A stretch of 64,000 nt of DNA from an uncultured Verrucomicrobiae bacterium. Lineage in GTDB: Bacteria; Verrucomicrobiota; Verrucomicrobiia; Chthoniobacterales; JAATET01. Positions 1,603 to 49,569 of this stretch are shown one piece after another. A program made the translations under genes and the position numbers. The stretch spans positions 646-64,645 of the forward strand of contig CAVUDH010000015.1 of the NCBI GenBank assembly GCA_963740185.1, given 5' to 3'. Within the stretch, counting starts at the first letter, position 1. Each line of letters begins with the position of its first letter. The notes under the pieces are model-generated. The model was not told the origin of the DNA. It ran no database searches and saw nothing but the letters and a program-made list of their open reading frames with translations.

Positions 1603-3144
1603 ATGCACTCCCGCCCTCTCGACACGATCATGAACGAACCACATCTCCCCCACGTGCCCGGTCGACGCCGGGTTCCGCTCAGGACGAAGGTCATCTGGGG
1701 TTTCGGCGGAATGGCCGACAACTTCATGTTCAACACGCTCACGGCGCTGGGCACGTTGGTTTACGTGAATCACTTCGGCCTCACGCCGGCGTTGGCCGGA
1801 CTCGCGCTGGCCCTGCCGCGGTTGATCGACGCCTTTACCGATCCGTGGATCGGCAACGTCTCGGACAATCTGAAAACCCGCTTCGGGCGAAGGCGACCGC
1901 TCATGTTTTTTGGCGTGATCGGGTGCGCGCTGCTGCTGCCCCTGCTGTGGACGCCGCTGGGCGCGGAGACGGCGCAGATCCGTGGTTCAGCAACATCCCG
2001 TTCTTTTACATCGTGATGATCGGCAGCCTGCTGGCCGTCGCTTACACGCTCTTCGTCGTGCCCTACACCGCTCTGGGCTTCGAACTGTCGTCGGATTACG
2101 ACGAGCGGACCCGCGTGATCGTTTGGCGGATGTATATCGGCCTCATCGCATCGGTCGCGGCGGGGTGGCTGTTCCGATTGGCGGCGGCGGACATGTTTCC
2201 GGATCTCGGAGCGGGTGCGTTCTGGGTGTCGGTGGGCGTGGCTGTAATCGTGTTGATGTCGGGGATGATTCCCGTCTTCGGCTGCCGTGAGGACCTCGAA
2301 GCGGAGAAGCAGGAGTCCATCCGACTGATCCCGGCGATCAAATACACGATGACGAACAAGCCATTCGTCATTCTCTTCGTCGCCTACACGACCATCATCG
2401 TCGCGCTGTTCGTGTCGCAGAAGCATCGCACCGCTGCTGATTCAACACTACGTTTACCAGGGCAGCACCAAGGCGATTGGGAACTTTCAAGGCTGGCTCA
2501 TGACGCTCGCCGTCGTGCTCTCCTACGCGAGCATGTTTCTGATCACGTGGATTTCCACGCGCCGCAGCAAGCGGATCGCGATGGTCGTCGGCCTCTCGAT
2601 CGTGCTCGTCGGCACGGTCGTGAATTACTTCGCGATCGATCCGCGCTGGCCGTGGATGATGTTCGTCGCCGGCGGCATCACGTTTCTGGGACTTCAGGGG
2701 TGCTGGTTGATGATCGACTCGATGGTCGCGGACGTCTGCGACGACGATGAATTGGCGACCGGTCGTCGGCGCGAGGGAATGTTCAGCGCGGTGAAGGGCT
2801 TCGCGCTCAAGGCAGCGCAGGCGATCACCTTCGGCATCGGCGGCTACATGGCGACGGCGGTCGGCTACGATCCCGCGGTGGTCGATGCGGCCGGATTGGA
2901 TGAGGCGACGGCGATGCGGATGAAGTTGGCGCTGGTCGGTTTCCAATCGCTCGGGCTTGTCCTCTCGATCGGCCTCGTCTGGCTCTACCCGATCAGCCGC
3001 GCCCGCGCCGCCGAGACGCAACGGCTACTGGAGGAGCGGGCCTCGGGGTCTCGGACGACGATCCGCCGGATTCGGTCACGACACAATTGCCGTGATCCAA
3101 GGTCCGATGACCGCGGATGGCGGATTTCCTCTTGCCATACGTAA
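1603..3144 (+). pseudogene. GPH-family (glycoside-pentoside-hexuronide):cation symporter, MFS superfamily; two frame changes (about 1975 and 2420)
   Basis: Three frames join into one transporter. The pieces are VIWGFGGMADNFMFNTLTALGTLVYVNHFGL..RLIDAFTDPWIGNVSDNLKTRFGRRRP, then PWFSNIPFFYIVMIGSLLAVAYTLFVVPYTALGFELSSDYDERT, then MIDSMVADVCDDDELATGRRREGMFSAVKGFALK. This is the typical MelB/GPH signature layout. Confidence 0.75.
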
Positions 3145-4667
3145 CGTTCAGTTTCAGCTTACCTCTTCCTCTTCCCGATCATGCCGACGTAAAAGTCATC
3201 TCTCACATCCTTCTCGCTTTCTCCCTCGGATCCGCGGCTCTCGCCGCCGACGACGGGAGGAAGCCGAACATCGTCGTCATCTTCACCGATGACTGGGGGC
3301 ACGGGGACGTCGGCGTGCACGGGGTGCTGGACGACATCAAGACACCGCACCTCGACCGTCTGGCGAAAGACGGGGCACTCTTCACGAATGGTTACGTCAC
3401 CTCGCCGCAGTGTGCCCCTTCCCGGGCAGGCCTGATCACCGGTCGCTATCAGGCGCGGTTCGATTTCGACTTCATCGGCTTGGGCCCACTGCCCCTTGAA
3501 GAGATGACCATCGCGCAGCGCCTGCAGAAAGCCGATTACGTGACCGGCATGGTCGGCAAGTGGCACCTGGAGCCGACTGCGCCGGACGTGCGTTGGGCGT
3601 CGGACCACCATCCGGAACTGATCGAAAATGGCCGCATCGTCAGCCTCCCGTATGAGGCCATCGCACCTTATCTCCCCGGGAAGCGCGGCTTTCAGGAATT
3701 CTATTGGGGGTTCCACAGCCCCTATTTCACCAACTTCGACCGCGAGGGCCGGGATCGCACGAAGGAAGGCAAGTGGGAAGCCACCGAAGACTATCGGATC
3801 GCGGTGAAAACCGAGGCTGCGCTTGCGTTCATCGAGCGAAACAAAACCAAACCATTCTTCCTTTACGTGGCCTACGCCTCACCGCACGTCCCGCTGGAGG
3901 CACCGAAGGAATACCTGGACCGTTTCCCCGGCGAGATGCCCGAGCGCCGTCGCTACGCACTGGCGATGATGGCCGCCATGGACGACGGGATCGGCGAGAT
4001 CGTCGCCGCACTCGAAGCGGCGGACTTACGGAAAACACGTTGATCGTGTTTGCGAGTGACAACGGAGCGCCTCTGGGAACGCAACTCGGCGAGCGCTTCG
4101 GTGACGTGATGCCGCTCGATACGAAAACAGCCCACTGGGACGGATCGCGAAACGATCCTTACAGCGGCGAGAAAGGAATGCTCGCAGAGGGCGGCATTCG
4201 CGTGCCGTTCGTCATGACGTGGCCCGGGACCATCCCGGCAGGACAAAGGATCAACTCTCCCGTCATCACCCTCGACATCGCCGCGACGGCGAATGCGATC
4301 GCCGGATTGCCGGACGATCCGACTCTGGACGGAATCAACCTGCTGCCGTATCGTCACGGAAAACGCGGGGAAGCGCCGCAGCGGGATTTGTTCTGGAAGT
4401 TCTGGGCGCAGGCGGCGGTTCGCTCCGGCGACTGGAAACTGATCGAGGTCGAGGGCCAATCGCTGCTATTCGACCTGGCGAACGACGCCGAGGAAACACT
4501 GAACTTAGCGGAAAAGAATCCTGAAAAGGTCGCCGAACTCCGGGAGAAACTCATCCTGGGCCGAGCAGATGCAGCCGCCCGGCGTGCCGGATCGGGACGC
4601 GAACGGGCAGGAAGAGATCTGGTTTGACCACTACTTCGGGCTGGATTTGAAGGGCTCGAGGCGCTAG
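3117..4667 (+). pseudogene. Formylglycine-type sulfatase (canonical C-A-P-S-R); frame changes near 3190, 4020 and 4555
   Basis: PNIVVIFTDDWGHGDVGVHG and SPQCAPSRAGLITGRY in the first frame; TENTLIVFASDNGAPLG..GGIRVPFVMTWPG in the second; WAEQMQPPGVPDRDANGQEEIWFDHYFGLDLKGSRR-stop (4667) in the third. The likely true start is ATG 3181 (MPT.KVISHILLAFSLGSAALAADD signal peptide), with an indel in the aaaa run at 3191. Confidence 0.8.
3139..3148 (+). promoter_or_regulatory. ACGTAACGTT motif copy, 33 nt upstream of the probable sulfatase start (3181)
   Basis: Reads ccatACGTAACGTTcag. The same core ACGTAACG recurs at 13142..13149, 15205..15212 and 17028..17035 (see findings). Confidence 0.3.
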
Positions 4668-4842
4668 CCCGCGTCCGCCCACCTCCGAGGGCAGCAAATC
4701 ATCTCAGCATCGGCGAACGATTTCAAAATACCCCAATTCTGATTGACATACATAACCTTCCGTGTATTTTCTCATCGCACGTGGCTGCCCGACCCGAAGT
4801 GTCTGTGGCACAACCCCCATGCCTCAAACTCAGACTCCAGAA

Positions 4843-5795
4843 ATGAAAATGCTCCCCATCCTCCGAATTCTCCCCGTTCTCTCGATCGGGTTCCTTGCCA
4901 CTACTGGCTCTGCCTCCGCGCAAACTAAATATGACGGAGGTCCAACCGGGACCGGCACAAACTACCTGACGCCCGAAAACTGGGCTAGTGATTCCGTTCC
5001 ACTTGGGACGGATATCGCGGTGATTGATGAGAATTTCACCACGTCTCTTACCGGTGCCGCTGGAGCGAATCGACTCGTTTTGGGCAATAATGCTGCGATG
5101 ACCGTGGCGTCTGGCGGGACGATGACTATCGGCGCCGCAGACCTCTACCTTGGAGCGAGTGGAGTTGCGGGGGTCACGGACGGGGGCGACGCGTCGCTGA
5201 CCGTGTCTCCGGTGGAACGTTGACTGCCCAGCGTCACACCTACATCTCATCGCAGAATCCTTTTGGCCGCAACGCGACGCTGACTCTCAACGGTGGAACG
5301 GTCACTGCGACGGATCGCTTTTGGGTCGGTAACGCCGCAGTCAACGATGCAGTTACCGGAACGGTTTCCGTGAACGGATCGACCGTGAATTGGACAACGG
5401 CCTCCGCTCGACATGAATCTTGGGCGGCGGCAACGGTTTCGCCACCATCAACTTCACCGCCGGATGCTATGGGCGTCAGCACACTATCCGCAGTTGCCCT
5501 GACTCTTGGCGGCGCGAAGGCGACACTGAACGTCGACTTCACGGGATATTCCATCGCAGGTTCGTCGACTCTGAATCTCTTCAATTATTCGGGAGCTCTG
5601 TCGGGGACTTTTGGCACGGTCAACTTCATTGGTCTCGGTGCGGGCGAGTCCGCTTCGATCGACTACGGCACGGGATTGAACAGCGTCATCTCGGTCACAG
5701 CAGTGCCGGAGCCCAGCACTTACGGCCTGATTCTGGCGGCGGGAGCGATCCTTGTCGGCCTGACCCGGGCGCGCTCGAAGCGGCGCTCGGCGTAA
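4843..5795 (+). pseudogene. Secreted PEP-CTERM sorting-domain protein (parallel-beta/passenger-like); about 3 frame changes (5215, 5405, 5460)
   Basis: Signal peptide MKMLPILRILPVLSIGFLATTGSASA. C-terminus is VTAVPEPSTYGLILAAGAILVGLTRARSKRRSA (PEP motif + TM + basic tail). Paralogous along its length to 14322..15186. Confidence 0.75.
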
Positions 5796-5815
5796 TCGGG
5801 AAATCCTCGACCTTC

Positions 5816-5856
5816 AAGAGGCGGCTGGGTTCGATCCAGGCCGCCTCTTCTGTTCC
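5816..5856 (+). terminator. Putative intrinsic terminator hairpin after the PEP-CTERM gene
   Basis: AAGAGGCGGC (5816..5825) pairs with GCCGCCTCTT (5840..5849) around a 14-nt loop. It is followed by a T-containing tract (ctgttcct), not a clean U-run. Confidence 0.4.
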
Positions 5857-6052
5857 TGCCCCCGCTGGATAGATCGGGTGACTGGTTGCCGGTGCCAGCG
5901 GGCCAACAATCAGACCCGCCATAAGATTGGTCGACCCACGTTGCACCAGGCGACATTGCTTGCGAAAATCCCAGAGACGATATACATATCGTTTAATAGA
6001 CATTGAAGAGATCTTGGTGTCTTCCCTTCTTCAGATCCCATCCCCCCGAACA

Positions 6053-6838
6053 ATGAATCTCAGATCGTCATTCTCTTTTCCGCCCGTCAAGTCCAGCGAA
6101 AGAGCCTTCACCCTCATCGAAATACTCGTGGTCGTTTCGATCATCGCGATCCTGGCGTCTCTGATTTTTGCGAGCGGTAAGCGGAATACAGAAGAAGGCC
6201 GTCGCCGCGAAGTGCCTGTCCAACATGAAGAGCGTGGTCACGGCGGCACATCTTTTCGCGAATGACAACGACGGAAAGCTGCCTCCGCTCTACACGGCGA
6301 AGGCGATCTTTCCGCAGCAGGCCGCCGATTCGAGATCCGGTGGCCATCGGTGCCGGCGTGCTGGCGTGGCCGGATATCCTCAGCGCCTACGGTTGCGAGG
6401 CGGCCCACGTGTCGTGCCCGGCTCTGCACACGTCGGCCACGCCGGGCGACGGGGGCATTTCGAGCACCAAGAGCCCTCTGGGGATCGGCATCAATTTCCC
6501 GAGCCTGGCTTCGATGTGGGTGACGCCGTCGGCGTTCGAGCGACAGATGCGGATCGGACGACCATCGAAGACTGTTTATTTCGCCGATGCGGGCGGCGGG
6601 CCGAAGCTCCGGCGGGCCGTTTGATAAACGAGAAGATACGCCGGGCCGGGGGGCCACGTTTTTCCGGGGCGCGCGTGACGAAGGAGTCAATGTGATGCCG
6701 CGGCATTCCGGGAAGGCCAACGTCGTATTCGTCGACGGGCACGCCCTCGCCGTCGATCCGAACGACATCGACTGGGGACCGCGCAATCCCTCGTTCACCG
6801 ATGCCATTGGTTGGAGCGACGCGACGGCGGAACGTTAG
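6053..6838 (+). pseudogene. Prepilin-type N-terminal cleavage/methylation domain protein, DUF1559 / H-X9-DG family; about 3 frame changes
   Basis: N-terminus AFTLIEILVVVSIIAILASLI. Then KKAVAAKCLSNMKSVVTAAHLFANDNDGKLP. C-terminal RHSGKANVVFVDGHA has the exact H-X9-DG spacing. Confidence 0.8.
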
Positions 6839-6853
6839 CCGACCTCTTATGTT

Positions 6854-8361
6854 ATGAAAATTCATCCCCACCTCCGCACCGTGATGTGTTCCGCGGGATT
6901 CCTGGTACTCCTGTCTTCCGGTCCGTTTTCCAGCCAATGCCCAGACGGACACTCTCGCCGGATAACGTGGACGGTGATCAGCCGGAAGTGGCCATGCCTG
7001 ATCCGGAACTTACTGCCAATACATTTAAGCCCAGTCCGAAGTCCTCCGATTCGGCGGCGCGGGCGAACGTGCGCCACCCCGCCATTCAGTCCGGCCTCGA
7101 AATCACTCCCTCTCCGGAAGGCGTGAAGGTCGCGGCGGGGTCGCTCGAGTTGAACGGCAACGAAATCGCGGTGGAGGGTGTCATTCTCGAGGTAAAATCC
7201 CCGCCATCGCTGCCCGTGAAGGGCCAGGCGATCCGGCTCTCCAAAGCACCCTTCGACGAGTGGAAGAGCCGGACGCTGCTCGCGGGACAGCCGCTGGGCA
7301 TGAAGAAGTGATGCCCGGATCGCTCATTTCAGAAAGCGTCGAGATCACGACCAGCGACGGTCGGAAGCTGGTGGCGGGGAAGGATTTCGTTCTCGATCCG
7401 GCGTGGAACGCCGTGGCGTTGACGGCAGCCACCGACTTTGCGGAAGGGCCGGGCTACACCGCCGACTACCAACTCGGCCCCCGGCGGGTCGATGCGGTGT
7501 GCGTGTCGAAGACGGGCGAAATTTCCTTGCGCGCCGGGGAAGCCGACCTGGCGTCGCCGCCCGTTCCCGAAGCCGCTGACGGAGACATCGTGCTGGCTCA
7601 CGTCTACTTTCCCGGCGGCGACGTCTCGGAGGTCCAGCCGGAGAACATTTTCCCCGTGGGCGACCCATCGCCGGATGCCCGACCGGAACTTGCGCTTGAG
7701 CGATTGGAGAAGACTCGCGCGAAACTCGAGAGTGGCGAACCGGTCACCATCGTCTGCTGGGGGGATTCCGTCACCGTCGGCGGCGACGCGGAGCCCATGG
7801 AGGAGATGCGTTACTCCGCCGTCTTCGAGCGGGCGCTCCGGCAGCACTATCCGAAGGCCCGCGTGGAAACGATCGCCAAGGGCGCTTCGACGAATGCCAT
7901 GTGGTTCAATCCGAAGCACGATCTCTCGAAGCGATGGAAGGACATCGAGGCGGCGAAGCCGGACCTGGTGACGTTGGAGTTCGTGAACGACTCGTATCTG
8001 ACGAAATGGCCGCAGTTCAAAAATCAGTATGACCGGATCCTCCAGAAAGTGAATGCGATGGGCGCGGAACTCCTGCTGATCACGCCGCATTTTACGATGA
8101 TGGAGAAGATGGGGCACCAAGACCTCCGCGGAGCCGGAGTCGCGACCCTACGTCACCCATCTCCGCCGATTCGCCGACGAAAATAACGTGGCGCTGGCCG
8201 ACGCTTCGAAGCGCTGGGAGCAGCTCTGGCGACAGGGTATTCCGTATGAGATTTATCTTAAGAACGGGATTAACCATCCCGACAATCGCGGCCATCAAAT
8301 CTTCGCCGATGCGCTGATGGAATGGTTCGCCGGAAGGCGGCGAAAAGCTACAAGTAGCTAA
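6854..8361 (+). pseudogene. Secreted SGNH/GDSL-family hydrolase with an N-terminal beta-rich domain; about 3 frame changes (6935, 7300, 8140)
   Basis: Signal peptide MKIHPHLRTVMCSAGFLVLLSSG. Block I is VTIVCWGDSVTVGG; then TLEFVNDSY. The last frame gives NGINHPDNRGHQIFADAL (DxxH block V) and stops at 8361. Confidence 0.7.
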
Positions 8362-8370
8362 AAATGCAGG

Positions 8371-8460
8371 GGCCTCACGCGGAGGCGGAGAGACGCAGAG
8401 GGAAGGATGTTTCGATTTTGCGTGAAATTCTCCAAGCCTCTGCGGCTCTGCGCGAGATTC
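8371..8460. repeat. REP-like palindromic intergenic element, copy 1 (between convergent gene ends)
   Basis: ggggcctcacgcgg..GAGAGACGCAGAGG..(loop)..CCTCTGCGGCTCTGCGCGAGATtc. It shares GGGCCTCRCGC, AGAGACGCAG and TCTGCGCGAGAT with 28930..29001. Confidence 0.6.
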
Positions 8461-8467
8461 GGAATCA

Positions 8468-10664
8468 TTAGCACGAGGTGACGGAAAACAGCCCGTGCGA
8501 GCGTTCGTTGGGGACGACTTGGAAATACTCGTCCAGAAATGCCTCAGGGTTCGCCGCCAGGACCTCGCGCGCTTTCCCAATGGCCTGCCCCCCATCGCCC
8601 GCGCCCTGCGTGCCCCACGGTTGATCGCCGTAGGTGGCCAGCGCGACGGCAGTTCGCGCGGCGGTGCCATGGGGTTCGAGCGCGACCTGCCAGGTCGCGT
8701 CGGACGGGATTCGCTCGGTGCCCTCGGGCGTGGCGATTTCGATCATCGCGCAGCAGGCGGGGCGTTCGTAGAGCGAACCGGCCTTGAAAATTTGCAGCGT
8801 GACGGTGTTTTCGCCTTCGCGGAGAAGCGGACCGATCTCCGCCCGATAGGGCGGTGGACCGTCGCCGAACATCTCGACCCGCTGCCCATTGACCCATGCC
8901 CGCACGAGTCGGTCGGAACTCGTACGCCGTGAGCCGGGCCTGCGCCGGGCCTGCGGCGGACTGCGTCTCGAAGGTCCGCGGAGAAGTATCGCGATGCCCA
9001 CGGGAGGTTCGACTTGAAGGTAGTCGCGTCCTCCCAGATCCATTGCGCTCCCGCAAGCGCGTCGGCTCCTTGTTCGGCGAATGCCTCACGTTGATTCTCG
9101 TGGTCCTCCGCGAGCAGTGTCGCGAGTTCGTCGATCAGGAATTTCGGTAGCGCCTCGCCCGACTGCCGGGTCGTCCGCAGCAGGCTCGCGAGATTCGTCT
9201 CGCGCGCGTGCAGCCGGTAGGCGCGGACTCGACGGAGCAGGTGGTGGGTCTCGCGGATGCTGGCCTCGAAAGATTACCCGATGGCTGGGGGAGATCCGAT
9301 CGATCACGGGCTCGAGTGCCTCGAGCGCCTGCTCGATTCGCTTCTCCGCAAAGCCGAAGCGAAGCTGGACGTCCTCCAGCATCCACGGGTGCGGCGGCGC
9401 GTCGTCGTTCTTCATGAAGATCGCGCGTCGGGTCGATTCCCAGGATGGGGTGGGGACCTGCGCACCGCGCAAGCCGGCGGCGGTGAGGGCATGGGAGACA
9501 TCGGACGTCCCGAACTCGCGCAGATACCAGGAGAGGTCCCACGGAAGAAATTCCTGGGCTTCGCTGAAGAGGCGCCACGCTTCGATCGACGGCGTCGGCA
9601 GCGTCGCCGAAGGGTGCCGCCAAGTCCCGGACGATGGTGGCTTCAGTGATCTCCTCGTCCGCCATCATGGCGCGCGCGCCGGCCGAGAGGTTAGCGTCCC
9701 ATTTGGTGGGGTTTAGCCCGTAGTATTCCTTGATACCAGTGACACCAGGCACGCTGGCAATCGTCCGCACTTGGCGGATCACCGCGTGAGGGTGCATCGA
9801 GATATTGATAGGGTTCGAGCTCCTCACTCATTGCTCCGAGGAAGCTCTCGACGAGGACGGGGATGTTTTTCTGGCTGGCGAGGCGGACGGTGTTTTTCAG
9901 CCAACGGTCGACGGGCAGAGTGAGCATGGTTTCCGCGACGTTCGGATGGAGGTCGAGGCCGAGGCCGAACGACTCGAAATCGGTCGACGCATTCGTAGAC
10001 CTGCCCGGCGGACAGTTCCCACGGCGACCACCAGAGCCATCCGTCGGCGTGGACGCCCGCCATTCGTCCGCCAGAGCCGCGACGAAGGGGACGACTTGCT
10101 CGGCGAGGGTGTGGCCGCGGGTTTTGGCGCAGGTGCCAAACTCGCTCGTGACCCAGGCGTCTTGGTCGTAGGTGTAGACGAGAATGTCGTCGACGCCGGG
10201 AAAGTCGGCGTCGAAGGCCCGGATCATCTCGCGGTAGTATTGAGCGTGGTCTCGGGGTCGAGCAGGCTGCGGGGCTGGGGTCCGTCGAAGTCGGTGTCGA
10301 TGCCGTATTGCGCGTTGAAGGGCGCGCCGAAGTGGAAAATGGTGCGCAGGCCCAGGTCGCGGCAGAGCGCGATCCGGTGGGTCAGTTGGGCTCGGCGTTC
10401 GTCGCGCCGCTCGGGGACGCTGCGCGGCGGGAGGTCGGGCTGGTTCGAATTCCGCGAGGCGGGCGGGCGGAAGCGACACGAGGTCTTCGAGATTGAGGGG
10501 TTCATCACCGGGTCGACCGCCCCAGGCGACGTTGAGCTGGACGGTGTTGAACCCGAGATCGCGGAGTCGGGTGAGATTGTCCTCGTTCCATTCGACGTCG
10601 GGATGCGAGGGGCAGTCCGACGAGTGGCGACTCGGTATCGAAAGGGCTAGGTGGAATGGGTCAT
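8468..10664 (-). pseudogene. Glycoside-hydrolase-like protein (TIM-barrel-like N-terminal part, C-terminal beta-sandwich sugar-binding-like domain), family unassigned; at least 6 frame changes
   Basis: Fragments: HPDVEWNEDNLTRLRDLGFNTVQLNVAWGG; RIALCRDLGLRTIFHFGAPFNAQYG; YYREMIRAFDADFPGVDDILVYTYDQDAWVTSEFG; DGWLWWSPWELSAGQVYECV. The C-terminus is WIWEDATTFKS..VRAWVNGQRVEMFGDGPPPYRAEIGPLLREGENTVTLQIFKAG. The ATG at 10664 overlaps the upstream stop (ATGA). Confidence 0.45.
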
Positions 10665-13099
10665 GGACGATCGGCGCGGATCGTGCGGACTCGTTCGATC
10701 TCGATTCGCCCCGGGGCGTTGGTCGGGATCGATTCGGAATTGATTGATCGTTCCTTCCCACTGCGGGCTCTGGGCCAGGTCGACCGGTAGGTTTGAAATT
10801 CGTCGCCGGACTGCGACGGAAAAGGTGATGCAATGCTCTGGCGTCCACTTCGCCGATCTTTTCGGCGGTCCAGAAGATCGATCCCCGCGTGCCCGTTCTC
10901 GACTTCATGGTGATCTCGATGAGCGTCGAACCTCTCGGCGGCGAAGCTGCAGCATCGGCGGGCGAGAGGAAGGCGGGGTCCTCGCCGACGCTCACGGCGA
11001 TTTCGCGACCCTCCTCGAGTGCGACGTCCGTCACCCCTTGAAGTGGCCGCAGGTAGAGGCTGGCTTCGCCGGATTCGAAGTTCGAGATCGAGACCGTTTT
11101 CCGGCAGACCCAACTTCCGTCGCGTAGCGTTCGCTGTAGACGGAATGCACGTCGGCCCACTTGGCGTCGGTCTCGAAACCTGGCACTTCCGCGGCCGGCG
11201 GGAGCGGTATTGCGTAGGGGCCGCGACGATCGGAGAGGACGTCGCGGATGGCACTGAGTTTGCCGAAACCTTCCTCTGCCGAAGGTTCGACGTGGCCACC
11301 TTCGCCCCATTCGTTCCAGGCTTCGAAGAGCGCAAGGCGGGGCTCGTCCTCGACGTAAGTCGGGCAACTCTCGAGCATTCGGCGAAACGCGCCGGGCGTG
11401 TTTCCGTCGTGCGGACGGAGCCTTCCGGCGAGCGGCCGTAGTCGTCCCAGCCCACCCAAGCGACCGGGATGTAATCGAGACCCTGCTCGTGCGCCTCGGC
11501 CTGAGCGGTCGCGTAGGCTTCGCGGTGACGCGGGATCAGGGCGGGGTAGGGGAGCTCGAATCCGCTCGCGATCGACGGTCTTCGCCACGTCGCGGAAGCC
11601 GTAGGCATACGCGGTGACGCAGTCGAACCCGGCGGCGTCGAAGTCGACAGGTAGGGCATGATGTGGACGGCGACGAAGTAGACGCCTTCGTGGCCGCCTT
11701 GGACTTGGCGAATGGCCCGCATGCGGTCGAGCGCTCGCTCATCTTCGCGAGGCCGCCGATTTCCCGATGATCTTGATCGGGGTGTGGAGGAAGACGACGG
11801 GTTTGCCGTCGACCTTCAGGTAATTCGGTTGGCTGAAATATTTGTCGCAGAGGATCGTCATCGCGTCGGCGAGCGCTTCGTCGGAGAACGACTCGGGCTT
11901 GAATTCCGCGGCGTGATTTTCGGTGCACCAATTGACGGCGAATTCCATCTGCGACGAGAAGCGGCTCTTCGAGGAACCCCTCGTCGAGCGCGTCGTTGAG
12001 GTATTCCATCCCCTGGTTCTGATACCAACAGAAGATGAAGAAGGAGATGCCGTGCTCGATGGCCCACCAGGTGTGCCAGTCGGCGACCTCGGGCAAGGCC
12101 TCGTCGTAGTAGCCGAGTAGGGGGTCCAGGTAGGGGACGTCGCGAACGCCCCAGTCGGCGCGATCCCAATCGAGGGTGACGGGAAGATAGTAGGCTCCGA
12201 GTTTCATGTCCATCTTCGGGGAGGACGGGTGGGGGAGGTCCTTGGTGGCGAGTCTCGATTTCCTCGGCGAAGGTGACGAAGGGGAGGGTGGTGACGGTGA
12301 GACGTTTTTGGTTCTCCACCGACTTTCGCGGTGACGTTGGCGGTGATCGGTTTCGAGAGATCTTCGGGAAACCGGTGAGCGGGATTGCGCGCTCGTACGT
12401 CTCTCCGTAGCCGAGCCGACCGATATCCAGGTGACTTGTGTCCGCCGTCGAGAGACCGGCGGGGAGGTCGAGATTTGATCTCGAGACGTCGTCGTAGACC
12501 GCGAGCCGCGGTTTTCCACGCGGAGGTCGAGCGTGGCGTCCTGGCCGGCATTTTTGCGGATCTGTGAGCAGACGAGGTCGACGGAGAGGCTGTCGGGGCG
12601 GACGGTGGCGGGCTGGAGGGTGAAGTCGGCGAAGTCGGCGGCCCACCCGGATGGGATGTAGATGACGATTCGCGCCTTGACCGCCTGCTCCGGCGCGATG
12701 ACTTCGTAGCGGTAGGGAGTCCATTGGCCAGGGATCATCACGCCCATCATGGCGTATTCGGTGCCGAGTTCCCGGCCCTTCGCGTCGAGCCAGACGAGGT
12801 GGGCGCTGAAGTTCATCTCGCCTTCGATGTGCCCGATCTGGACGCTGAAGTCGTAGCCTTGGAGCGGCTGGACCGCGAAGGGCCTGGATCCCACGTTGAG
12901 CGGGCCGGTCCCGCGAGCGTCGACTCGCAGCACGAATGGATTCGTTTCATCGCCGGATTCGATGGCGACGTGACCCTCGTGCTGCGGCGCGACGTTCCAC
13001 GACTCGAGGGAGGTGTCCAGATTTGAAAGATCGGCTGCCGAGCCCGGTGGATGAAACCAAAACGGTAATAACGAGAGAGTAAACCGGGAAAAAACGCAT
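10661..13099 (-). pseudogene. Secreted multidomain protein: CBM-like + CARDB-like + GH99-like (WbsX-type) catalytic-like domain + C-terminal beta domain; at least 8 frame changes
   Basis: Signal peptide MRFFPVYSLVITVLVSSTG. Next, LRVDARGTGPLNVGSRPFAVQPLQGYDFSVQIGHIEGEMNFSAHLVWLD. The WbsX/GH99-like blocks are MKLGAYYLPVTLDWDRADWG, PLLGYYDEALPEVADWHTWWAIEHGISFFIFCWY, FAVNWCTENH, YLKVDGKPVVFL, DYIPVAWVGWDD and LFEAWNEWGEGGHVEP. Confidence 0.6.
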
Positions 13100-13135
13100 A
13101 TCGAGACTGGGTGGTGATGGCTACTGCTGTCCGAT

Positions 13136-13149
13136 AGTAAACGTTACGT
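13136..13149. promoter_or_regulatory. Candidate LacI-type operator / ACGTAACG motif copy in the divergent region between 10661..13099 and lacI-family 13268..14347
   Basis: aGTAAACGTTACGT has an AACGTT palindromic core and GTAA/TTAC arms. It lies 40-50 nt upstream of ATG 13099. Confidence 0.3.
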
Positions 13150-13267
13150 GTCAAGGGCGGTCAGGTTCAGCCGTTCCGATGAGGCTTGCGGGTGGTTTCG
13201 GAGCGTCATAGAAGGACTCCCAGCCTATGTGCGACGCCCGCTTCCCCGAGTCCCCCGGTTCTCCTTC

Positions 13268-14347
13268 ATGAAAACCACCGTCGGTCGGAGATCGAGTGGC
13301 CGAATCACGCTACGGGACATCGCGAAGGACGCGGGGGTTACGGCGGCGACGGTATCCGACATTTTGAACGAGCGTGAGCGGTGCTGGGCCTCGGCGGAGA
13401 CGAAGGAGCGCGTGCGGGCCGCGGCTGATCGGCTCGGATATCGTGTAAACCGCGCGGCGCGCCTGCTGCGGACCGGCAATTCCGGTCTCATGGGCATCCT
13501 CATCAGCGACATCTTGAATCCTTTTTACATCTCCCTCGCGCATTCTCTGGAGGTCTCGCTGGAAGCCGCTGGCTACGAGGTCGTGATCGAGGACTGCGCC
13601 GGGGACCCGGCGCGGGAGGCGCGAGCCATTCGCAATCTTCTCTCGCTGAGCGTGGACGGCATGGTCTGCGCCACGCAGTTCTCCGACGAGAACATCGCGA
13701 CCTTGCGAGAATACCGGCAGTCGGGGCAGCGGCTGGTTTTCGTCGGCACGCCGCCCGCGCAGCTCGAAGTCCGGACCGTTCGAGTGGACGACAACGACGC
13801 GTTTGCCGACCTCGCGGAGTTACTGCGGGCCACGGGCCACGAGCGCATCGCTTACGTCTCAGCCCAGCGACTTCCCGCGAAAGATTCCACTCGGGAGGAG
13901 CGTCTGCGGCGGGCCCTCGAGGGCGTCGGTCTCTCGCTCGCCAAGGACTTGGTCGCGGAGTGTCCCCCCTCGCTCGACGAAGTCGCCCGCGCCGTGCGCG
14001 AGCTGTGCGAACTCCCCGCCCGCCGACGTCCCACGGCGATCTGCGCGATCAACGACATCACCGCCGTGGCCGTGGTCCGTGCCATTCTCGACACTGGCCT
14101 GCGGTTTCCGGAGGACATTTCGGTCGTTGGCTTCGACGACATCGACCTCGCACGCTGGCTGCCGTGCCGGTTGACGACGATCTCACAAGGCTACGGGCTG
14201 ATCGCTGAGGAGAGCGTGCGCTTGCTGCGGGAAGATTCCGACGCGGCGGGCGTCGTGCCACCGATTGTTGTCACCGCGAAATTGATGATCCGGGACTCCG
14301 TGGTCCCGGTTGCTCAACCGGTCAGTGCTTCTCGATCTCAAGGCTGA
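13268..14347 (+). CDS. LacI-family transcriptional regulator (intact)
   Basis: HTH ITLRDIAKDAGVTAATVSDILNERERCWASAETKERVRAAADRLGYRVNRAARLLRTG, followed by a periplasmic-binding-like fold (GILISDILNPFY..VVGFDDIDLARW). Confidence 0.9.
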   Translation: MKTTVGRRSSGRITLRDIAKDAGVTAATVSDILNERERCWASAETKERVRAAADRLGYRVNRAARLLRTGNSGLMGILISDILNPFYISLAHSLEVSLEAAGYEVVIEDCAGDPAREARAIRNLLSLSVDGMVCATQFSDENIATLREYRQSGQRLVFVGTPPAQLEVRTVRVDDNDAFADLAELLRATGHERIAYVSAQRLPAKDSTREERLRRALEGVGLSLAKDLVAECPPSLDEVARAVRELCELPARRRPTAICAINDITAVAVVRAILDTGLRFPEDISVVGFDDIDLARWLPCRLTTISQGYGLIAEESVRLLREDSDAAGVVPPIVVTAKLMIRDSVVPVAQPVSASRSQG

Positions 14348-15186
14348 CCGCCCCGTTATCGCCTGAGCCATAATCGACGGTCCCGGTGAAGCCATCTGGC
14401 AATCCCTCGATGAAGACGTCGCCAAATTCTCCGGTGAGCTTGCCGGAATACGTGATCAGCGGATAAGTCGCGTTATCCGTCGGCGCGAGGGCTTCGGCGT
14501 TCACTTTGAGCGTCGCGTTTTCGCCACCCAGCGTGACGTTGACCGCCTCGATTTTGCTGATGCCCGAGGCGTCGAAAACGAGATTGATGATCGCCTTACC
14601 GCCGACGCTACCCAGGTCCACATCCGCCGTCGGCGTCCCCCACGCCAGACCACTGCCTTCGATGGTCAACTCGCCGACGACTGCTTGATTCATAGCATCC
14701 GAGCCGACCCAGAAACGATCGGAAACTACGACCGCCCCGCCGGAGAACTTCACCATTGCGCTGCGCCCGTGGGGATTGGTCGCGGCGAGGTAAAATTTCG
14801 GTGCCGCGATGCGGCCGCCCTCCTTTAGATCGAGCGACGCCGTGCCGGTGCCGCTCACGCCATTGAAGCCACTGAATCCCACGTAGAGGTTGTTCTTCCC
14901 GACTTCGAGGTGCCCGCCGGAATCGACGATCAGCCCGGAATTATTGCCGAGTGCCAGCCGCGCAACCTCGGCGGGCTCGGAGAGCGTCGCGGAGTGTGCC
15001 TCGTCGAGCACGGCGGCGTCGTTGATCCCGGGTGGGCCGTCGGGGCTCCAGTTTCCGGGCTCGAGGAAGCTCCCGCCGTCCTCACCGGTAAATTTGAAAT
15101 CGGCGGCGGAGGCCCAGGGGGCACTCAGCGCGGCGGCGAGAGCGAAGAGCGGACAATAAGCGACGGGAGGGACGAAGATTCAGCAT
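14322..15186 (-). pseudogene. Secreted paralog of the 4843..5795 PEP-CTERM protein, lacking the PEP-CTERM anchor; 1 frame change near 15160
   Basis: ATG 15186 (MLNLRPSRRLL), then a shifted frame gives FALAAALSAPWASAADF (signal peptide). The body aligns with 4843..5795 (DRFWVGSDAMNQAVVGELTIEG vs DRFWVGNAAVNDAVTGTVSVNG; YSGKLTGEFGDV vs YSGALSGTFGTV). It ends AVSLEIEKH-stop exactly where the paralog continues VTAVPEPS. Confidence 0.65.
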
Positions 15187-15197
15187 ATCAAAGAGGG

Positions 15198-15214
15198 AAC
15201 GTTGCGTTACGTAT
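15198..15214. promoter_or_regulatory. ACGTAACG motif copy (AACGTTGCGTTACGTAT), 12-28 nt upstream of ATG 15186
   Basis: On the coding (minus) strand it reads tatACGTAACGCAACGTTccc. Confidence 0.3.
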
Positions 15215-15238
15215 AACCGCATTGACCGGTGCGGCAAT

Positions 15239-15268
15239 TGCAAAGTGGGCGGGTGCAAAGTGGGCGGG
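15239..15268. repeat. Perfect 15-bp tandem duplication TGCAAAGTGGGCGGG x2
   Basis: The units at 15239..15253 and 15254..15268 are identical. They sit 53-82 nt upstream of ATG 15186 (minus-strand gene). Confidence 0.9.
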
Positions 15269-15293
15269 AGATCACCCGGGCGGCAGCGCGGTA

Positions 15294-15501
15294 TGTGTTT
15301 AGCGAGTTAGACTGACTCAAGGAGCAGGGTTGAGTGTTGATGGAGGTTGAGTGTTGATTGGAATACGACAACGAGAAGTTCCCGTCGTGCGAGGCATTGG
15401 AAGCTCCCACTCAACCTTCAACAATAGCCACTCAACATCCTGCGGGCACTGGACGCAGGCATTGTTGGCGGCTGGAAGCCGCCACTCCGGGCGCTAAACA
15501 C
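15294..15501. other. About 210-bp non-coding element bounded by 11-bp inverted repeats and containing nested hairpins (MITE-like or structured RNA)
   Basis: TGTGTTTAGCG (15294..15304) pairs with CGCTAAACACA (15492..15502). GGTTGAGTGTTGAT occurs twice (15328, 15345), facing CACTCAAC twice (15408, 15430). Further hairpins are CCTGCG..CGCAGG (15439..15459) and GGCGGCtggaaGCCGCC (15468..15484). Confidence 0.4.
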
Positions 15502-15523
15502 ACACGTAGCCCGGTGGCCGCCA

Positions 15524-17026
15524 TCATTTCAACGTCTTGGCGTCAGCCGCGTGCAGCTCGCGCATTCTCTCGAGCTCCGCGGTGAATGCCGGGTTGGCGG
15601 CCAGATTCGTGAGTTCCTGCGGATCGTTTTTCCAATCGAAGAGTTCCTCGTAAACCGGCTTGCGGTCGATGTAGCGGATGTATTTCCATTTCCGGTCGAA
15701 GACGGCTTCCGTCGGCAGGATTTGGCCCGCGTGCCGGTAGGGATGCTCGAAGAACGCGTGCGTGCGCCAGCCAGGTCGGCCGGTCAGAGCGTCGTAAATG
15801 TCGCCTCCCTGCATGGTCGGTGGCACCGGGACGCCCGCGAGCGCGAGCATGGTGGTCGTGAAATCGATCGTCAGGATCATCGCGTCGCTGGTGGCGGGAA
15901 GATCAATGCCGGGCCGCAGATCATGAACAAACCCCGGAACTCGGATCGACGGATCGTAGGTCAGCCATTTTCCCGTGAGCCCGAACTCGCCGTGAAAATA
16001 TCCGTGATCCGAGGTGAAGAGGATCACGGTGTTGTCCGCCAGTCCGCGCGCTTCGAGTTCCTTCACGAGTTGACCGACGGCGTCGTCCACGCTCATGACG
16101 AGCCGCGCCTCAGCCCGGATGTTCCCCTGCAGTAGTCCCTTTTTATCCAAATACTTTTTGCCCTCGATCCGCCCGAGGTGTCGCTCGAAAAATTCGGGCC
16201 GCGTGTCGGCGGCGGCGTGGGTGGCCGTCGCGGGAATCGGGAGGTTCACGGTCTTGTAGGCATCCGCGAATCGCGGCTCGAAGTCGCTCACCGGGTTGTG
16301 CGGTGCCTTGAACGATACCGAGAGACAAAATGGCTTCCCTGCCGGTGCCGCGTCCAGAAACTGGCGGACCTTGATCGGGACGACCTGACCGTCGACGTGG
16401 ATCGGATCAGCGAGTCCCTTGCGCCCGAACCGGTTCTCGAATCCTTGCTTGCCGGCTTCCGGGTGCGGGCAGTCGCAGAGGTTGTCCGGGCCATTGGTTA
16501 GCACGTAGCGACAATCTTTTTCGTGCCAATAATTCGTCTGACGCGGCTGCCCTGCCCAAAAATCGAAGTAACCCGCCGCCTTCGTACTCAACTCAGGCGT
16601 GTCGCCGACGCCCCACTTGCCGATGAAGCCCGTGTAGTAACCACCTTTTCGAAGGAGGACCGGATAGAGCTCCTCACTCTGTTCCTCGGTAAAGGTCTTC
16701 ACGAAATCATCGATCCCGTGTCGGCGCGGATACTGACCGGTCAGGATGCTCGCCCGGCTGATGGAGCAGATGGGGGCTACGGCGAAGCAATTCGTGAGAA
16801 TGGTTCCCTCTCTAGCGAGGCGATCTAGGTTCGGAGTCTGGATTCGATCGTCCGCGTAGCCGATCCAGTCCCAGCGCTGATCGTCCGTGAGGAGAAAGAC
16901 GATGTTGGGAGGGGCGGGCTCTGCGGTGGTCGAAGTTTCCACTCCGAAGGTGGGCCGAGAGAAAAACAAGAGGGTCGTGAGGAGAAGAAAGCGGATCACT
17001 CGGGCAGGGGGCATCGGTGGCTGCAT
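15524..17026 (-). CDS. Sulfatase (intact) with a non-canonical C-S-I-S-R active-site motif
   Basis: PNIVFLLTDDQRWDWIGY, NCFAVAPICSISRASILTGQYPRRHG, TVILFTSDHGYFHGEFGLTGKW. The ATG at 17026 (MQPPMPPARVIRFLLLTTLLFFS signal) is preferred over the TTG at 17059. Confidence 0.9.
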   Translation of the reverse strand: MQPPMPPARVIRFLLLTTLLFFSRPTFGVETSTTAEPAPPNIVFLLTDDQRWDWIGYADDRIQTPNLDRLAREGTILTNCFAVAPICSISRASILTGQYPRRHGIDDFVKTFTEEQSEELYPVLLRKGGYYTGFIGKWGVGDTPELSTKAAGYFDFWAGQPRQTNYWHEKDCRYVLTNGPDNLCDCPHPEAGKQGFENRFGRKGLADPIHVDGQVVPIKVRQFLDAAPAGKPFCLSVSFKAPHNPVSDFEPRFADAYKTVNLPIPATATHAAADTRPEFFERHLGRIEGKKYLDKKGLLQGNIRAEARLVMSVDDAVGQLVKELEARGLADNTVILFTSDHGYFHGEFGLTGKWLTYDPSIRVPGFVHDLRPGIDLPATSDAMILTIDFTTTMLALAGVPVPPTMQGGDIYDALTGRPGWRTHAFFEHPYRHAGQILPTEAVFDRKWKYIRYIDRKPVYEELFDWKNDPQELTNLAANPAFTAELERMRELHAADAKTLK

Positions 17027-17027
17027 A

Positions 17028-17035
17028 ACGTAACG
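17028..17035. promoter_or_regulatory. ACGTAACG motif copy in the divergent region between the sulfatase (ATG 17026) and the 17131..20268 GH-like gene
   Basis: The plus strand reads cataACGTAACGatatc. It lies 96 nt upstream of ATG 17131 and 2 nt upstream of ATG 17026. Confidence 0.3.
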
Positions 17036-17130
17036 ATATCTATGAGCGATGCGCCGCAAAGCGTCAATCCAGCGACTCCATACTAATCGTTCCTTGTCAC
17101 GCTGTGTTCTCGCATTTACGCCTTCCGCTA

Positions 17131-43300: not shown

Positions 43301-43989
43301 ATGAACACCACCCGCCTTCTGCTCAAGACCCTCCTCGTCACGTACGGCACTCTGTCCGATCATCCGCGCCGCCGACGTCAGTTGGTCGCTCGACAGCGAA
43401 GTCCTGCGTCGACGGTCCCATCGGCCCCGTTCCCGCCCTGCAGAGCGAACCCGCCGGGCATCCGCTGATCTTCGGACGCAGCGGAGACGCACCTTCCCCG
43501 AAGCGCTTTTTTCCGGTCGCCGCCGACGGCGCGCTGCGATTCAGCGGCAAGGCGACCGCCTACGTCCCGGAGTTTTGGAAAAACCCGTCCGGCTTCACGG
43601 TCACCGTCGACGTCGAATTCGACGACGTTTCGACGGACCAAACCGTCGTCCTCGTCACCAACGTCTTCGATCTGCGACTGACCATCACCAACGGCGAGCC
43701 CGCGCTCACGCTCCACGCCATGCGCCCTCCGAAGCCCGCCGTCGCCGCACGGATCGACGGCATTGAGGCCGGACGCCTCTACCACGTCATCGCGTCGGTC
43801 TCCGACACCGGCGAGGTCTCGATCCACCTCGACGATGGCTCGACCGCCACCGCCGACCTCGAAGGCTCCTCCTCTCCGTGGGGCGCCTACCCCGACCTCT
43901 ACGTCGGCAGCGCCAACCCCGATAAGTTCTCCCGCCCGCTCCGCGGCTCCATTCACGCGCTTTCGATCTCGACCGGAACCGCCCAGTAA
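43301..43989 (+). pseudogene. Secreted LamG/concanavalin-like domain protein; about 2 frame changes in the first 100 nt
   Basis: MNTTRLLLKTLLVTYGTL (signal). Then RFSGKATAYVPEFWKNPSGFTVTVDVEFDDVSTDQTVVLVTNVFDLRLTITNGEPALTLHA..GRLYHVIASVSDTGEVSIHLDG..LYVGS..FSRPLRGSIHALSIS. Confidence 0.6.
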
Positions 43990-44014
43990 CACCCCCGCCG
44001 CGTCCCCGATCCGC

Positions 44015-45736: not shown

Positions 45737-45738
45737 TC

Positions 45739-49507: not shown

Positions 49508-49569
49508 TTTCCCCTCAACGCCGAAGCCAATCTGGCTCCGGCCCAACCCCCAACCCCACAACCGCCCCC

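Follow-up and report, generated by a model that had tools for sequence, protein, structure and literature searches.

Four exact copies of one 8-mer, ACGTAACG, lie on the two strands of the 64-kb window (the whole stretch of DNA analyzed here, from an uncultured Verrucomicrobium), at 3139-3146 (+), 13142-13149 (-), 15205-15212 (-) and 17028-17035 (+), around a gene for a LacI-family regulator. Do they mark genes controlled by this protein, as a sequence-only reading of the window had suggested? Very probably they do: the 8-mer appears to be half of an 18-bp predicted operator of the neighboring LacI protein, which would repress seven transcription units of a gene cluster that probably serves to degrade sulfated glycans.

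Counts and symmetry of the motif

Recounting recovered the four copies that had been reported, and a fifth was not found on either strand of the 64-kb window. Chance expectation is 0.83 +/- 0.91 copies, none of 100 dinucleotide shuffles yields four, and 2.18 Mb of unrelated loci contain 0.47 copies per 64 kb. The sequence-only reading was also correct in placing every copy in 5' intergenic DNA and in the flanking sequences that it quoted, as well as in how far it put them from five ATGs (3181, 13099, 15186, 17026 and 17131). Variants with one mismatch are not enriched in the window (34 versus 37 expected). Additional real sites emerge only with a model of 18-22 nt, not with variants of the 8-mer.

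The larger motif is an even pseudo-palindrome of 18 bp with the consensus AyACGTAA-CG-TTwAGTAT, and ACGTAACG corresponds to its better conserved left half-site together with the CG at the center. Of the eight mirrored pairs of positions in the consensus, seven are complementary. Single sites carry a mean of 4.04 complementary pairs out of eight, versus 2.76 in the null, and no value as high was obtained in 2000 shuffles. Sixteen of 19 sites have CG as their central pair, and the other three have GG or CC. Individual sites are only moderately symmetric (two to seven of eight pairs), the right half-site being distinctly the weaker one and positions -4/+5 being non-complementary (G versus A/T). 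At the upper end is ATACATAACGTTAAGTAT, found in front of lacI in the related loci L165 and L166, with seven complementary pairs. Conservation of the left half is partly a matter of ascertainment, since it was the exact 8-mer that led to many of the training sites. An AACGTT core, proposed earlier for all copies, occurs only in the first two copies and, shifted, in the third, while copy 4 reads AACGAT.

LacI-family operators are even palindromes of 16-22 nt with a central CG, usually 30-140 bp upstream and in fewer than 1% of cases within coding sequence, and roughly three in four local regulators of the family control their own gene (PMC4052901). As judged from its sequence and placement, the motif is of this published type.

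Predicted operators and their target genes

A position weight matrix (PWM) trained on 15 sites, all from other genomes, identifies seven distinct sites of at least 17 bits in the window, and the next best match scores 12.9. These sites comprise all four exact copies and three new ones (17080-17097, 5982-5999 and 4748-4765). By chance 0.05 would be expected from 100 Markov simulations, or 0.052 per 64 kb from 1.22 Mb of unrelated high-GC DNA. All seven are confined to 3.1-17.1 kb, in non-coding DNA 19-125 nt from start codons, with one or two sites per 5' region; none lies inside coding sequence, the location whose frequency had been raised as a check on the motif. The PWM detects no site in the remaining 17.1-64 kb, where an SSF transporter and two alginate-lyase-like genes are encoded, and none in the other glycan cluster of the window (43.7-50.9 kb).

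Operator 1 (3137-3154, +; ATACGTAACGTTCAGTTT; 19.2 bits on the plus and 21.2 on the minus strand) contains copy 1, and its center lies 35 nt 5' of the ATG of sulfatase-1 (3181-4627, +). This gene is split over frames, with Pfam Sulfatase and SGSH_C matches on two ORFs, and it matches the sulfatase of L167 in frames 3 and 2. Operator 2 (4748-4765, -; ACACGGAAGGTTATGTAT; 20.7 bits), a new site with GG rather than CG at its center, is 63 nt 5' of the ATG of a PEP-CTERM secreted paralog (4820-5795, +). The product of this gene, which has one frameshift near 5210, is about 37% identical to the 299-aa paralog of L161. Operator 3 (5982-5999, +; ATACATATCGTTTAATAG; 22.1 bits), also new, is 63 nt 5' of the ATG at 6054 of an N-terminal-methylation (pseudopilin-like) gene, which is followed by a GDSL-esterase-like gene (together 6054-8328, +). 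Both are frameshifted, and their L162 orthologs match N_methyl and Lipase_GDSL_2.

Operator 4 (13134-13151, -; ACACGTAACGTTTACTAT; 27.1 bits) contains copy 2 and lies between divergent genes, 43 nt 5' of the ATG at 13099 of a WbsX-like gene on the minus strand and 125 nt 5' of the lacI ATG at 13268. It is a probable autoregulatory site of lacI. The unit on the minus strand (8471-13099), delineated by tblastn against the 805-aa and 720-aa proteins of L162, consists of the WbsX-like gene (10664-13099) and a homolog of the 720-aa protein with no assigned function (8471-10664). It is heavily frameshifted, with 35 frameshifting indels specific to the window. The only confirmation of the earlier GH99-like description of its first product is a Pfam Glyco_tran_WbsX match, seen in orthologs (the L162 and L167 proteins).

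Operator 5 (15197-15214, -; ATACGTAACGCAACGTTC; 17.2 bits) contains copy 3, 19 nt 5' of the ATG at 15186 of the secreted 299-aa paralog (14322-15186, -), in which a 1-nt insertion directly follows the start. Operators 6 and 7 share one divergent region and are 54 bp apart, center to center. Operator 6 (copy 4, site 4a; 17026-17043, +; TAACGTAACGATATCTAT; 23.4 bits) adjoins the start codon of sulfatase-2 (17026, -) and is 96 nt 5' of the ATG at 17131 of a GH106-like gene. The new operator 7 (site 4b; 17080-17097, -; ACAAGGAACGATTAGTAT; 26.3 bits) is 62 nt and 42 nt 5' of these two starts, respectively. Both genes are intact. Sulfatase-2 (15524-17026, -; Pfam Sulfatase and SGSH_C) is 92% identical to its L161 counterpart, and the 1045-aa GH106-like protein (17131-20268, +), with a weak Pfam Glyco_hydro_106 match to its N-terminus only, is 90% identical.

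Many target genes are thus frameshifted in this assembly, which is probably an artifact of the assembly itself; were the frameshifts real, some of the operators would be relics here. The ATGs at 3181, 13099 and 15186, given by the sequence-only reading as starts, are out of frame with the gene bodies in this DNA, and orthologs identify 15186 as a true conserved start.

Six of the seven sites are directed toward the downstream gene. The common gene-relative orientation claimed earlier holds for the four exact copies; it does not hold for 4748-4765 or for most sites in L165, L167 and L001. Mixed orientations are expected of a palindromic site. Orientation bears on the possibility that the motif is a core-promoter element, such as an extended -10 or part of the sequence recognized by an ECF or other alternative sigma factor. 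The prevailing direction of the window sites would suit such an element, as would the AT-rich, -10-like right half (TAnTAT), an invariant CTTG outside the 18-bp core at copy 2, and TTGACA or TGACAA sequences that adjoin sites at 13150-13155 and 4743-4748 and occur near another at 17097-17102. However, the distance from site to start varies between 19 and 125 nt, and orientation relative to the downstream gene is reversed at L165 4229 and 5683, L167 2090, L001 11930 and window 4748. Just one of the seven sites can be fitted to a -35/-10 pair whose elements are 16-18 nt apart, and dyad symmetry around a central CG is not accounted for. Moreover, no sigma-factor gene is conserved in the neighborhoods (the single case is in L162, at a distance of about 6 kb), and the motif accompanies a LacI ortholog in every locus. 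A promoter element is consequently an improbable explanation.

An RNA-level element shared by 5' UTRs, either structured or bound by a protein, is still harder to credit. The four exact copies are co-oriented with downstream genes, and some sites are close to starts (19 nt for copy 3; adjoining the sulfatase-2 ATG, on the opposite strand, for copy 4), as such an element might be. Yet an Rfam search returned no match, both orientations occur in related loci, and at the divergent site 4 the element would be needed in two transcripts of opposite sense. Dyad symmetry of the DNA and linkage to a DNA-binding regulator fit the data better.

Footprints and the likely binding protein

Phylogenetic footprinting, proposed earlier as a check on the predicted operators, reveals invariant islands within diverged intergenic DNA of five related genomes, where the surrounding regions are 51-75% identical. 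The invariant segments are AAACGtTACGTGTCAAG at copy 2 (whole region 60% identical), ACGTAACG at copy 4 (75%) and TACTAAnCGTTnCTTG at operator 7 (51%). Sites 4a and 4b are separated by 54 bp in the window and also in L001, L161 and L164; in L162 the distance is 57 bp. Operator 5 is kept in L161 and L164 and replaced in L001 by a variant of opposite orientation (23.5 bits); in L162 a site was not found 5' of the 280-aa paralog.

These footprints also bear on whether the motif recurs by chance, through base composition, or as what is left of a small repeat or mobile element. The absence of enrichment among one-mismatch variants would be in keeping with chance, and the PWM does give AT-rich false positives in unrelated loci of low GC content. 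Against this stand the excess of exact copies (4 versus 0.83) and of PWM sites (7 versus 0.05), and the retention of orthologous positions in five genomes despite diverged flanks. The copies share only about 18 bp, with neither common flanks nor terminal repeats. Counts, footprints and PWM together effectively refute this explanation.

The intact 359-aa regulator (13268-14347, +) has Pfam LacI HTH and Peripla_BP_1/3 domains, and no LacI paralog was found in the 64-kb window. Its closest solved relatives are CcpA, RbsR and PurR; the best PDB match is CcpA 3oqo (E 2.5e-37, residues 13-322), followed by RbsR (E 4e-30) and PurR (E about 1e-22), both at low identity. Orthologs are 55-91% identical overall, and the HTH and hinge are near-invariant (in residues 14-70, 38 of 57 positions do not vary).

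Scanning covered the window, orthologous loci and unrelated loci. A site is present 5' of the LacI ortholog in all ten loci with upstream DNA, down to 55-59% protein identity. In L167 it lies between lacI and a divergent sulfatase orthologous to sulfatase-1. Further sites, not used for training, are located 5' of genes in distant loci (L165 4229, L001 11930, L168 1600, L170 747 and L171 846), and another, L167 2090, is directly 5' of the WbsX-like ortholog. The sites are therefore real: they are far above chance, non-coding, conserved as footprints, typical of the family, and co-occur with this LacI clade.

Could they be operators of a transcription factor encoded elsewhere, with LacI merely a target or co-regulator? 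Unequal half-site conservation is somewhat unusual for a homodimer and would fit this idea. However, no regulator other than LacI is common to the orthologous loci compared, lacI has the site in its own upstream region in ten of ten loci, the architecture is of the LacI-family type, and conservation of the HTH parallels that of the motif. Another factor thus seems an unlikely master of these sites.

Control by LacI is supported by motif architecture, footprints, the site at lacI orthologs, the lack of another shared regulator and the motif-free second cluster. The earlier proposal that this protein governs the sulfatases, GH-like genes and secreted protein gains support from such sequence comparisons, and the predicted regulon can be extended to the PEP-CTERM paralog, the pseudopilin-like/esterase unit and probably lacI itself.

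A dimer of the 13268-14347 protein is the most likely binder of the 18-bp sites. As in other members of the family, the half-sites would be contacted by the recognition helices and the central CG by the inserted hinge helices. Like most family members, the effector-free protein would bind and repress, rather than activate, seven transcription units. These would encode two S1 sulfatases, the GH106-like protein, the WbsX-like glycan enzyme with its 720-aa partner, two secreted paralogs (at least one PEP-CTERM-anchored) and the pseudopilin-like/GDSL-esterase unit; LacI would probably also repress its own gene from operator 4, which this gene shares with the divergent WbsX-like unit. Release of LacI would be brought about by a sugar or oligosaccharide freed from the substrate, which is probably a sulfated glycan. 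Repression by occlusion is assumed, since a canonical sigma-70-like call overlaps only one of the seven sites: operator 2 lies inside the spacer of the sole strong call (TTGACA-16-TATTTT, 4743-4770). What emerges is a well-supported yet ordinary kind of bacterial gene switch.

Comparison with known regulatory systems

The predicted regulon resembles the local LacI-family sugar-catabolic regulons compiled in RegPrecise (Ravcheev et al. 2014, PMC4052901), a survey of seven phyla that does not include Verrucomicrobia. Shared features are an even palindrome with a central CG, sites upstream of starts (30-140 bp in the survey) and outside coding sequence, a regulator that is encoded beside its targets and autoregulated (here probably), and carbohydrate-active target genes. 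Seven operators, in contrast, are a high number for a regulon of the local type, and PEP-CTERM secreted and pseudopilin-like N-methyl proteins and a weaker right half-site set this system apart.

CcpA of Firmicutes has the same two-domain architecture and likewise recognizes pseudo-palindromes centered on CG. It acts globally, however, and depends on HPr-Ser-P as corepressor, whereas the window's LacI looks like a local regulator, with all its predicted sites inside the cluster that encodes it.

RbsR/PurR-type operators of Proteobacteria follow the pattern nCGnAA(A)CGTT(T)nCGn. An idealized ACGTAA-CG-TTACGT shares the CG...AA-CG-TT...CG layout of the E. coli rbs and pur operators, which are related to each other (PMC4052901). 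The proteins themselves have low identity, their recognition helices are different (TAATVSDILN in the window protein), the outer ATA/TAT positions and the targets differ too, and no orthology is claimed.

Polysaccharide utilization loci (PULs) of Bacteroidota combine co-localized, co-regulated glycan-degrading enzymes with a dedicated substrate sensor, and the predicted regulon is organized in like manner. It differs in having no SusC/SusD pair in the cluster and, as surface components, PEP-CTERM and N-methyl proteins. Its sensor would be a cytoplasmic LacI-type repressor in place of membrane-spanning PUL regulators such as SusR, hybrid two-component systems or ECF sigma/anti-sigma pairs.

The 8-mer as half of a predicted 18-bp operator

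The 8-mer ACGTAACG occurs four times in the 64-kb window, at 3139 (+), 13142 (-), 15205 (-) and 17028 (+). Dinucleotide shuffling leads one to expect 0.83 ± 0.91 copies, and all 100 shuffles yield fewer than four. The background is 0.47 per 64 kb in 2.18 Mb of unrelated loci, which include metagenome contig relatives at 36% identity or below that are too distant for footprinting. The exact count thus confirms the sequence-only reading, which had found the 8-mer four times and nowhere else in the window; its flanking sequences and distances to genes are also correct. One-mismatch variants are not enriched in the window (34 against 37 expected). The signal is therefore not a loose family of 8-mers, and the motif was modelled at 18-22 nt.

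When 19 sites from five clades are aligned on their central dinucleotide, they yield the 18-bp consensus AyACGTAA-CG-TTwAGTAT. All 19 carry A(-6), A(-2), G(+1) and T(+7). In this reduced set the central pair begins with C (position 0) in 16 sites and ends with G (+1) in all of them; three sites have a central GG (CC if read on the opposite strand). Complementarity holds at seven of the eight mirrored positions of the consensus and fails only at -4/+5 (G against A/T). Among the 26 listed sites, complementary pairs average 4.04 of 8 per site compared with 2.76 when right halves are shuffled, a value that none of 2000 shuffles equals. Single sites are only moderately symmetric. Their right half is weak and their left half better conserved, though partly through how the sites were found. 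Because the aligned sites give a mirrored, CG-centred consensus, the 8-mer combines the central CG of an even, 18-bp pseudo-palindrome with its left half, which is the better conserved of the two. Idealised as ACGTAA-CG-TTACGT, this site shares its layout with the boxes of RbsR and PurR. Two other readings, as an odd palindrome (ACGT-A-ACGT) or as a tandem AACGT pentamer, were considered and rejected, since the ninth base is not constant (T, A or C) and the even model also explains the outer ATA/TAT positions.

A 22-nt weight matrix, trained on 15 sites that all come from genomes other than that of the window, finds seven distinct window sites at 17 bits or more; the next best match scores 12.9. 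The scan recovers the four copies and adds 17078-17099 (-), 5980-6001 (+) and 4746-4767 (-). First-order Markov simulations predict 0.05 sites per window (maximum 1 in 100 runs), and 1.22 Mb of unrelated DNA with at least 58% GC contains 0.052 per 64 kb.

The seven 18-bp predicted operators are at 3137-3154, 4748-4765, 5982-5999, 13134-13151, 15197-15214, 17026-17043 and 17080-17097. All are in non-coding DNA 5' of genes, their centres 19-125 nt away from start codons (35, 63, 63, 43 (125 to lacI), 19, 96 and 62 nt, respectively). Equal frequency in coding regions would have spoken against the sequence-only reading, but none of the seven sites in the window is coding. All are confined to 3.1-17.1 kb. 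The other 47 kb of the window has no matrix site, though it includes a second glycan cluster (43763-50868) with an SSF (sodium:solute symporter) transporter (43763-45736), a 972-aa alginate-lyase-like gene that also has a DUF1961 match (46589-49507) and a 432-aa alginate-lyase-like gene (49570-50868). The motif therefore does not mark carbohydrate genes in general, and the second cluster, which lacks it, is presumably under different control.

Conservation of the sites and of the LacI protein

One close relative emerged from the genome collection, a Verrucomicrobiae MAG (L001, CAVVKW01) whose LacI is 78% identical. Over the stretch syntenic with window 6.5-20.3 kb, 76-78% of its nucleotides are identical. 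Contigs encoding LacI orthologues from the protein database (91, 78, 75 and 57-60% identity) were also compared. The exact 8-mer is present at orthologous intergenic positions in these relatives. Phylogenetic footprinting, which had been proposed as a check on the sequence-only reading, reveals invariant motif blocks within diverged intergenic DNA of five genomes. The region between lacI and the WbsX-like gene is 60% identical overall, yet the block AAACGtTACGTGTCAAG is invariant. Between sulfatase-2 and the GH106-like gene, the 8-mer and a second block, TACTAAnCGTTnCTTG, are invariant. Upstream of the 299-aa paralogue, the site is kept in three genomes, is a variant in L001 and is lacking in L162, which is contig_3246 of ERZ25039505 and reads ACGTATCG at the position of the 13142 copy. 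Conservation of the operators at 3137-3154, 4748-4765 and 5982-5999 was assessed indirectly, by way of the orthologous loci L165 and L167.

Strong sites beyond the training set are found in 5' regions at L165 4229, L167 2090, L001 11930, L168 1600, L170 747 and L171 846. The L167 site is immediately upstream of the WbsX-like orthologue, and those of L168, L170 and L171 are intergenic and immediately upstream of lacI. Matrix matches at the first lacI codons of L167-L170 (TGAAACAAAAAGTTACTTTACG, encoding the initial LacI residues ..KQKVTLR) were set aside as conserved coding sequence, not operators.

The excess of four exact copies over 0.83 and of seven matrix sites over 0.05, together with the five-genome footprints, leads us to reject chance or the remnant of a repeat element as the origin of the motif. 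An RNA-level element is rejected as well, as Rfam 15 gives no match at the gathering threshold on either strand of 1-22000.

A site is located upstream of lacI in every orthologous locus for which upstream DNA is available (the window, L001, L161, L162/L163, L165/L166, L167, L168, L170 and L171). The version directly upstream of lacI in L165 and L166, ATACATAACGTTAAGTAT, is a near-perfect 18-bp palindrome. The regulator thus adjoins its putative targets and has its own upstream site, an arrangement that makes autoregulation of lacI likely. The L164 locus carries a DDE_3 transposase gene (2516-3076) between its site (279-300) and lacI (3671). This IS element parts lacI from the presumed autoregulatory site, and LacI is truncated there to 203 aa.

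LacI is the sole regulator common to the orthologous neighbourhoods and has no paralogue in the window. A different, unlinked transcription factor is an unlikely binder of the sites, and nothing points to one. L167 lacI is flanked by orthologues of the sulfatase-1 and MFS genes of the window, and hence the gene downstream of the 3139 copy belongs to the same conserved set.

The intact lacI open reading frame (13268-14347) encodes a LacI helix-turn-helix (HTH) and a periplasmic-binding-protein-like sugar domain. PF00356 matches residues 14-61 at 46.4 bits (cut-off 27), and PF00532 and PF13377 match the sugar-binding part. An exact look-up of the protein returned no record. Its 65 relatives in the PDB include CcpA, RbsR, PurR and LacI, the closest by sequence being CcpA (E 2.5e-37), RbsR and PurR. 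Within residues 14-70, 38 of 57 positions do not vary among orthologues with 55-91% overall identity; the recognition helix T-x-ATVSDILN and the hinge VN-x-AAR-x-LRTG are part of this invariant set. In the PurR and LacI structures, a leucine of the hinge helix inserts at the central CG. The window hinge segment, VNRAARLLRTG, is conserved including L67, which by sequence pattern alone would correspond to PurR Leu54. Invariance of the recognition helix and hinge across orthologues fits an unchanged DNA specificity.

Genes of the cluster and integrity of the assembly

Genes were assigned by Pfam searches and by tblastn with intact orthologues, because GC3 periodicity is too noisy as a gene finder at the GC content of the window. 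On the forward strand, the cluster comprises an MFS_2 transporter (about 1636-3144), sulfatase-1 (3181-4627), a PEP-CTERM secreted protein (4820-5795), an N-methyl pseudopilin-like gene (from 6054), a GDSL-esterase-like gene (6991-8328), lacI and a 1045-aa protein with a weak N-terminal GH106 match (17131-20268). On the reverse strand are a 720-aa protein of unknown function (8471-10664), a WbsX-like protein (10664-13099), the 299-aa secreted paralogue (14322-15186) and sulfatase-2 (15524-17026). Another 720-aa product, unrelated to the operators, is encoded at 36900-39062 (-) as a single-ORF fusion of a fatty-acid desaturase, a Rieske [2Fe-2S] domain and an NAD-binding oxidoreductase.

In the stretch from about 1.6 to 15.2 kb, eight genes are broken into 2-5 reading frames when compared with their intact orthologues. 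A three-way alignment of 8470-13100 reveals 35 window-specific frameshifting indels, compared to 5 and 3 in the control orthologues. Most are 1-nt insertions outside homopolymers, often adjoining CGA, TCGA or GATC. No frameshifting indels are found in 15524-20250, and lacI and all genes to the right of the frameshift cluster are intact. The ATGs at 3181, 13099 and 15186 differ in frame from their gene bodies in the window assembly. Alignment with L161 and L164 identifies 15186 as a conserved true start, with one extra T in the window 45 nt downstream. Sequence 3181-3192 reads ATG CCG ACG TAA, an in-frame stop after three codons. The sulfatase-1 signal peptide resumes in the -1 frame (..VKVISHILLAFSLGSAALAA), and removal of two bases restores MPTKVISH...; most simply, this stop is another indel of the frameshift cluster. 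Protein identity to L162 is a mosaic ranging from 59% to 98%, and three related contigs are present together in one sample. We suspect that the frameshift cluster stems from a long-read metagenome consensus that is collapsed or chimeric, and not from true pseudogenes.

Two small repeats lie near the operator at 15197-15214. Directly upstream of it, a perfect tandem 15-mer (TGCAAAGTGGGCGGG x2, 15239-15268) is present as a single copy in L161 and L164. The window also has an insert of about 215 bp (15291-15505) that the orthologous intergenic DNA lacks; in L161 this spacer is only about 60 nt long. Inverted repeats of 14 nt, GTATGTGTTTAGCG and CGCTAAACACACAC, which are 93% complementary, flank the insert, and its interior contains inverted repeats and a duplicated GGTTGAGTGTTGAT. 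This insert looks like a MITE or another small structured element.

Putative mechanism and comparison with the LacI family

The evidence supports control by the intact LacI protein, as the sequence-only reading had suggested, and raises the number of predicted operators from four to seven. A LacI dimer would repress seven units from operators located at or near promoters and would be released by a sugar derived from the substrate. One operator occupies the spacer of a canonical promoter, TTGACA-16-TATTTT, at 4743-4770. Two further sites are abutted by TTGACA or TGACAA, and no -10 element matching these was found.

Such overlaps might suggest that the motif is itself a core-promoter or alternative-sigma element. 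When it is read as an ECF-type promoter (GGAAC...CGT) or as TTGACA with a -10 at 16-18 nt, only 4743-4770 fits. A sigma-70 scan of 2900-17400 gives 3 promoter-like sites compared with 2.3 expected, and again only 4743-4770 coincides with a motif site. This explanation is disfavoured because distances to start codons vary, distant loci show both orientations, the site has dyad symmetry and the motif strictly tracks LacI.

The divergent region between sulfatase-2 and the GH106-like gene contains two operators in opposite orientation (17026-17097), each close to the start of one of the two genes and upstream of the second. Their centres are 54 bp apart, or about five helical turns, in four of five genomes (the window; L001, 13479-13554; L161, 3920-3995; L164, 7187-7262) and 57 bp apart in L162 (13660-13738). 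The kept spacing may reflect cooperative binding at these predicted operators. A broader and rather doubtful proposal is that, in this lineage of soil Verrucomicrobiae, a cytoplasmic LacI-type sensor controls sulfated-glycan enzymes along with surface parts (PEP-CTERM-anchored beta-proteins and the pseudopilin-like N-methyl protein). These might form a 'PUL-like' module for capture and degradation that is not of the SusC/D type and has a regulatory code of its own, in which the 54-bp operator pair acts cooperatively.

The regulation of glycan-degradation genes in Verrucomicrobia has been little studied. For a LacI-family regulator of this phylum, these predictions provide a concrete, testable model of its operators and delimit its regulon. 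The putative regulon ties the WbsX-like, 720-aa and 1045-aa proteins, the PEP-CTERM paralogues and the N-methyl protein to the sulfatases and the GH106-like enzyme. Such ties are guilt-by-association hints for annotating opaque genes.

A survey of 1303 LacI-family transcription factors, whose coverage does not extend to Verrucomicrobia, assigned even palindromes of 16-22 nt to 1251 and a central CG to 1173 (PMC4052901, Ravcheev et al. 2014). A minority have a degenerate or other central pair. Sites in this family are mostly 30-140 bp upstream of start codons, and under 1% are in coding sequence; autoregulation is seen in more than three quarters of local regulators, and most members bind DNA in their ligand-free form (PMC4052901). 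The window motif agrees with the surveyed operators in every sequence-level respect: its consensus is even and 18 bp long, CG is at its centre, all seven sites are upstream and non-coding, and the regulator gene lies beside its putative targets with a site in front of it. The mechanism itself is textbook, and the system is of a well-known kind.
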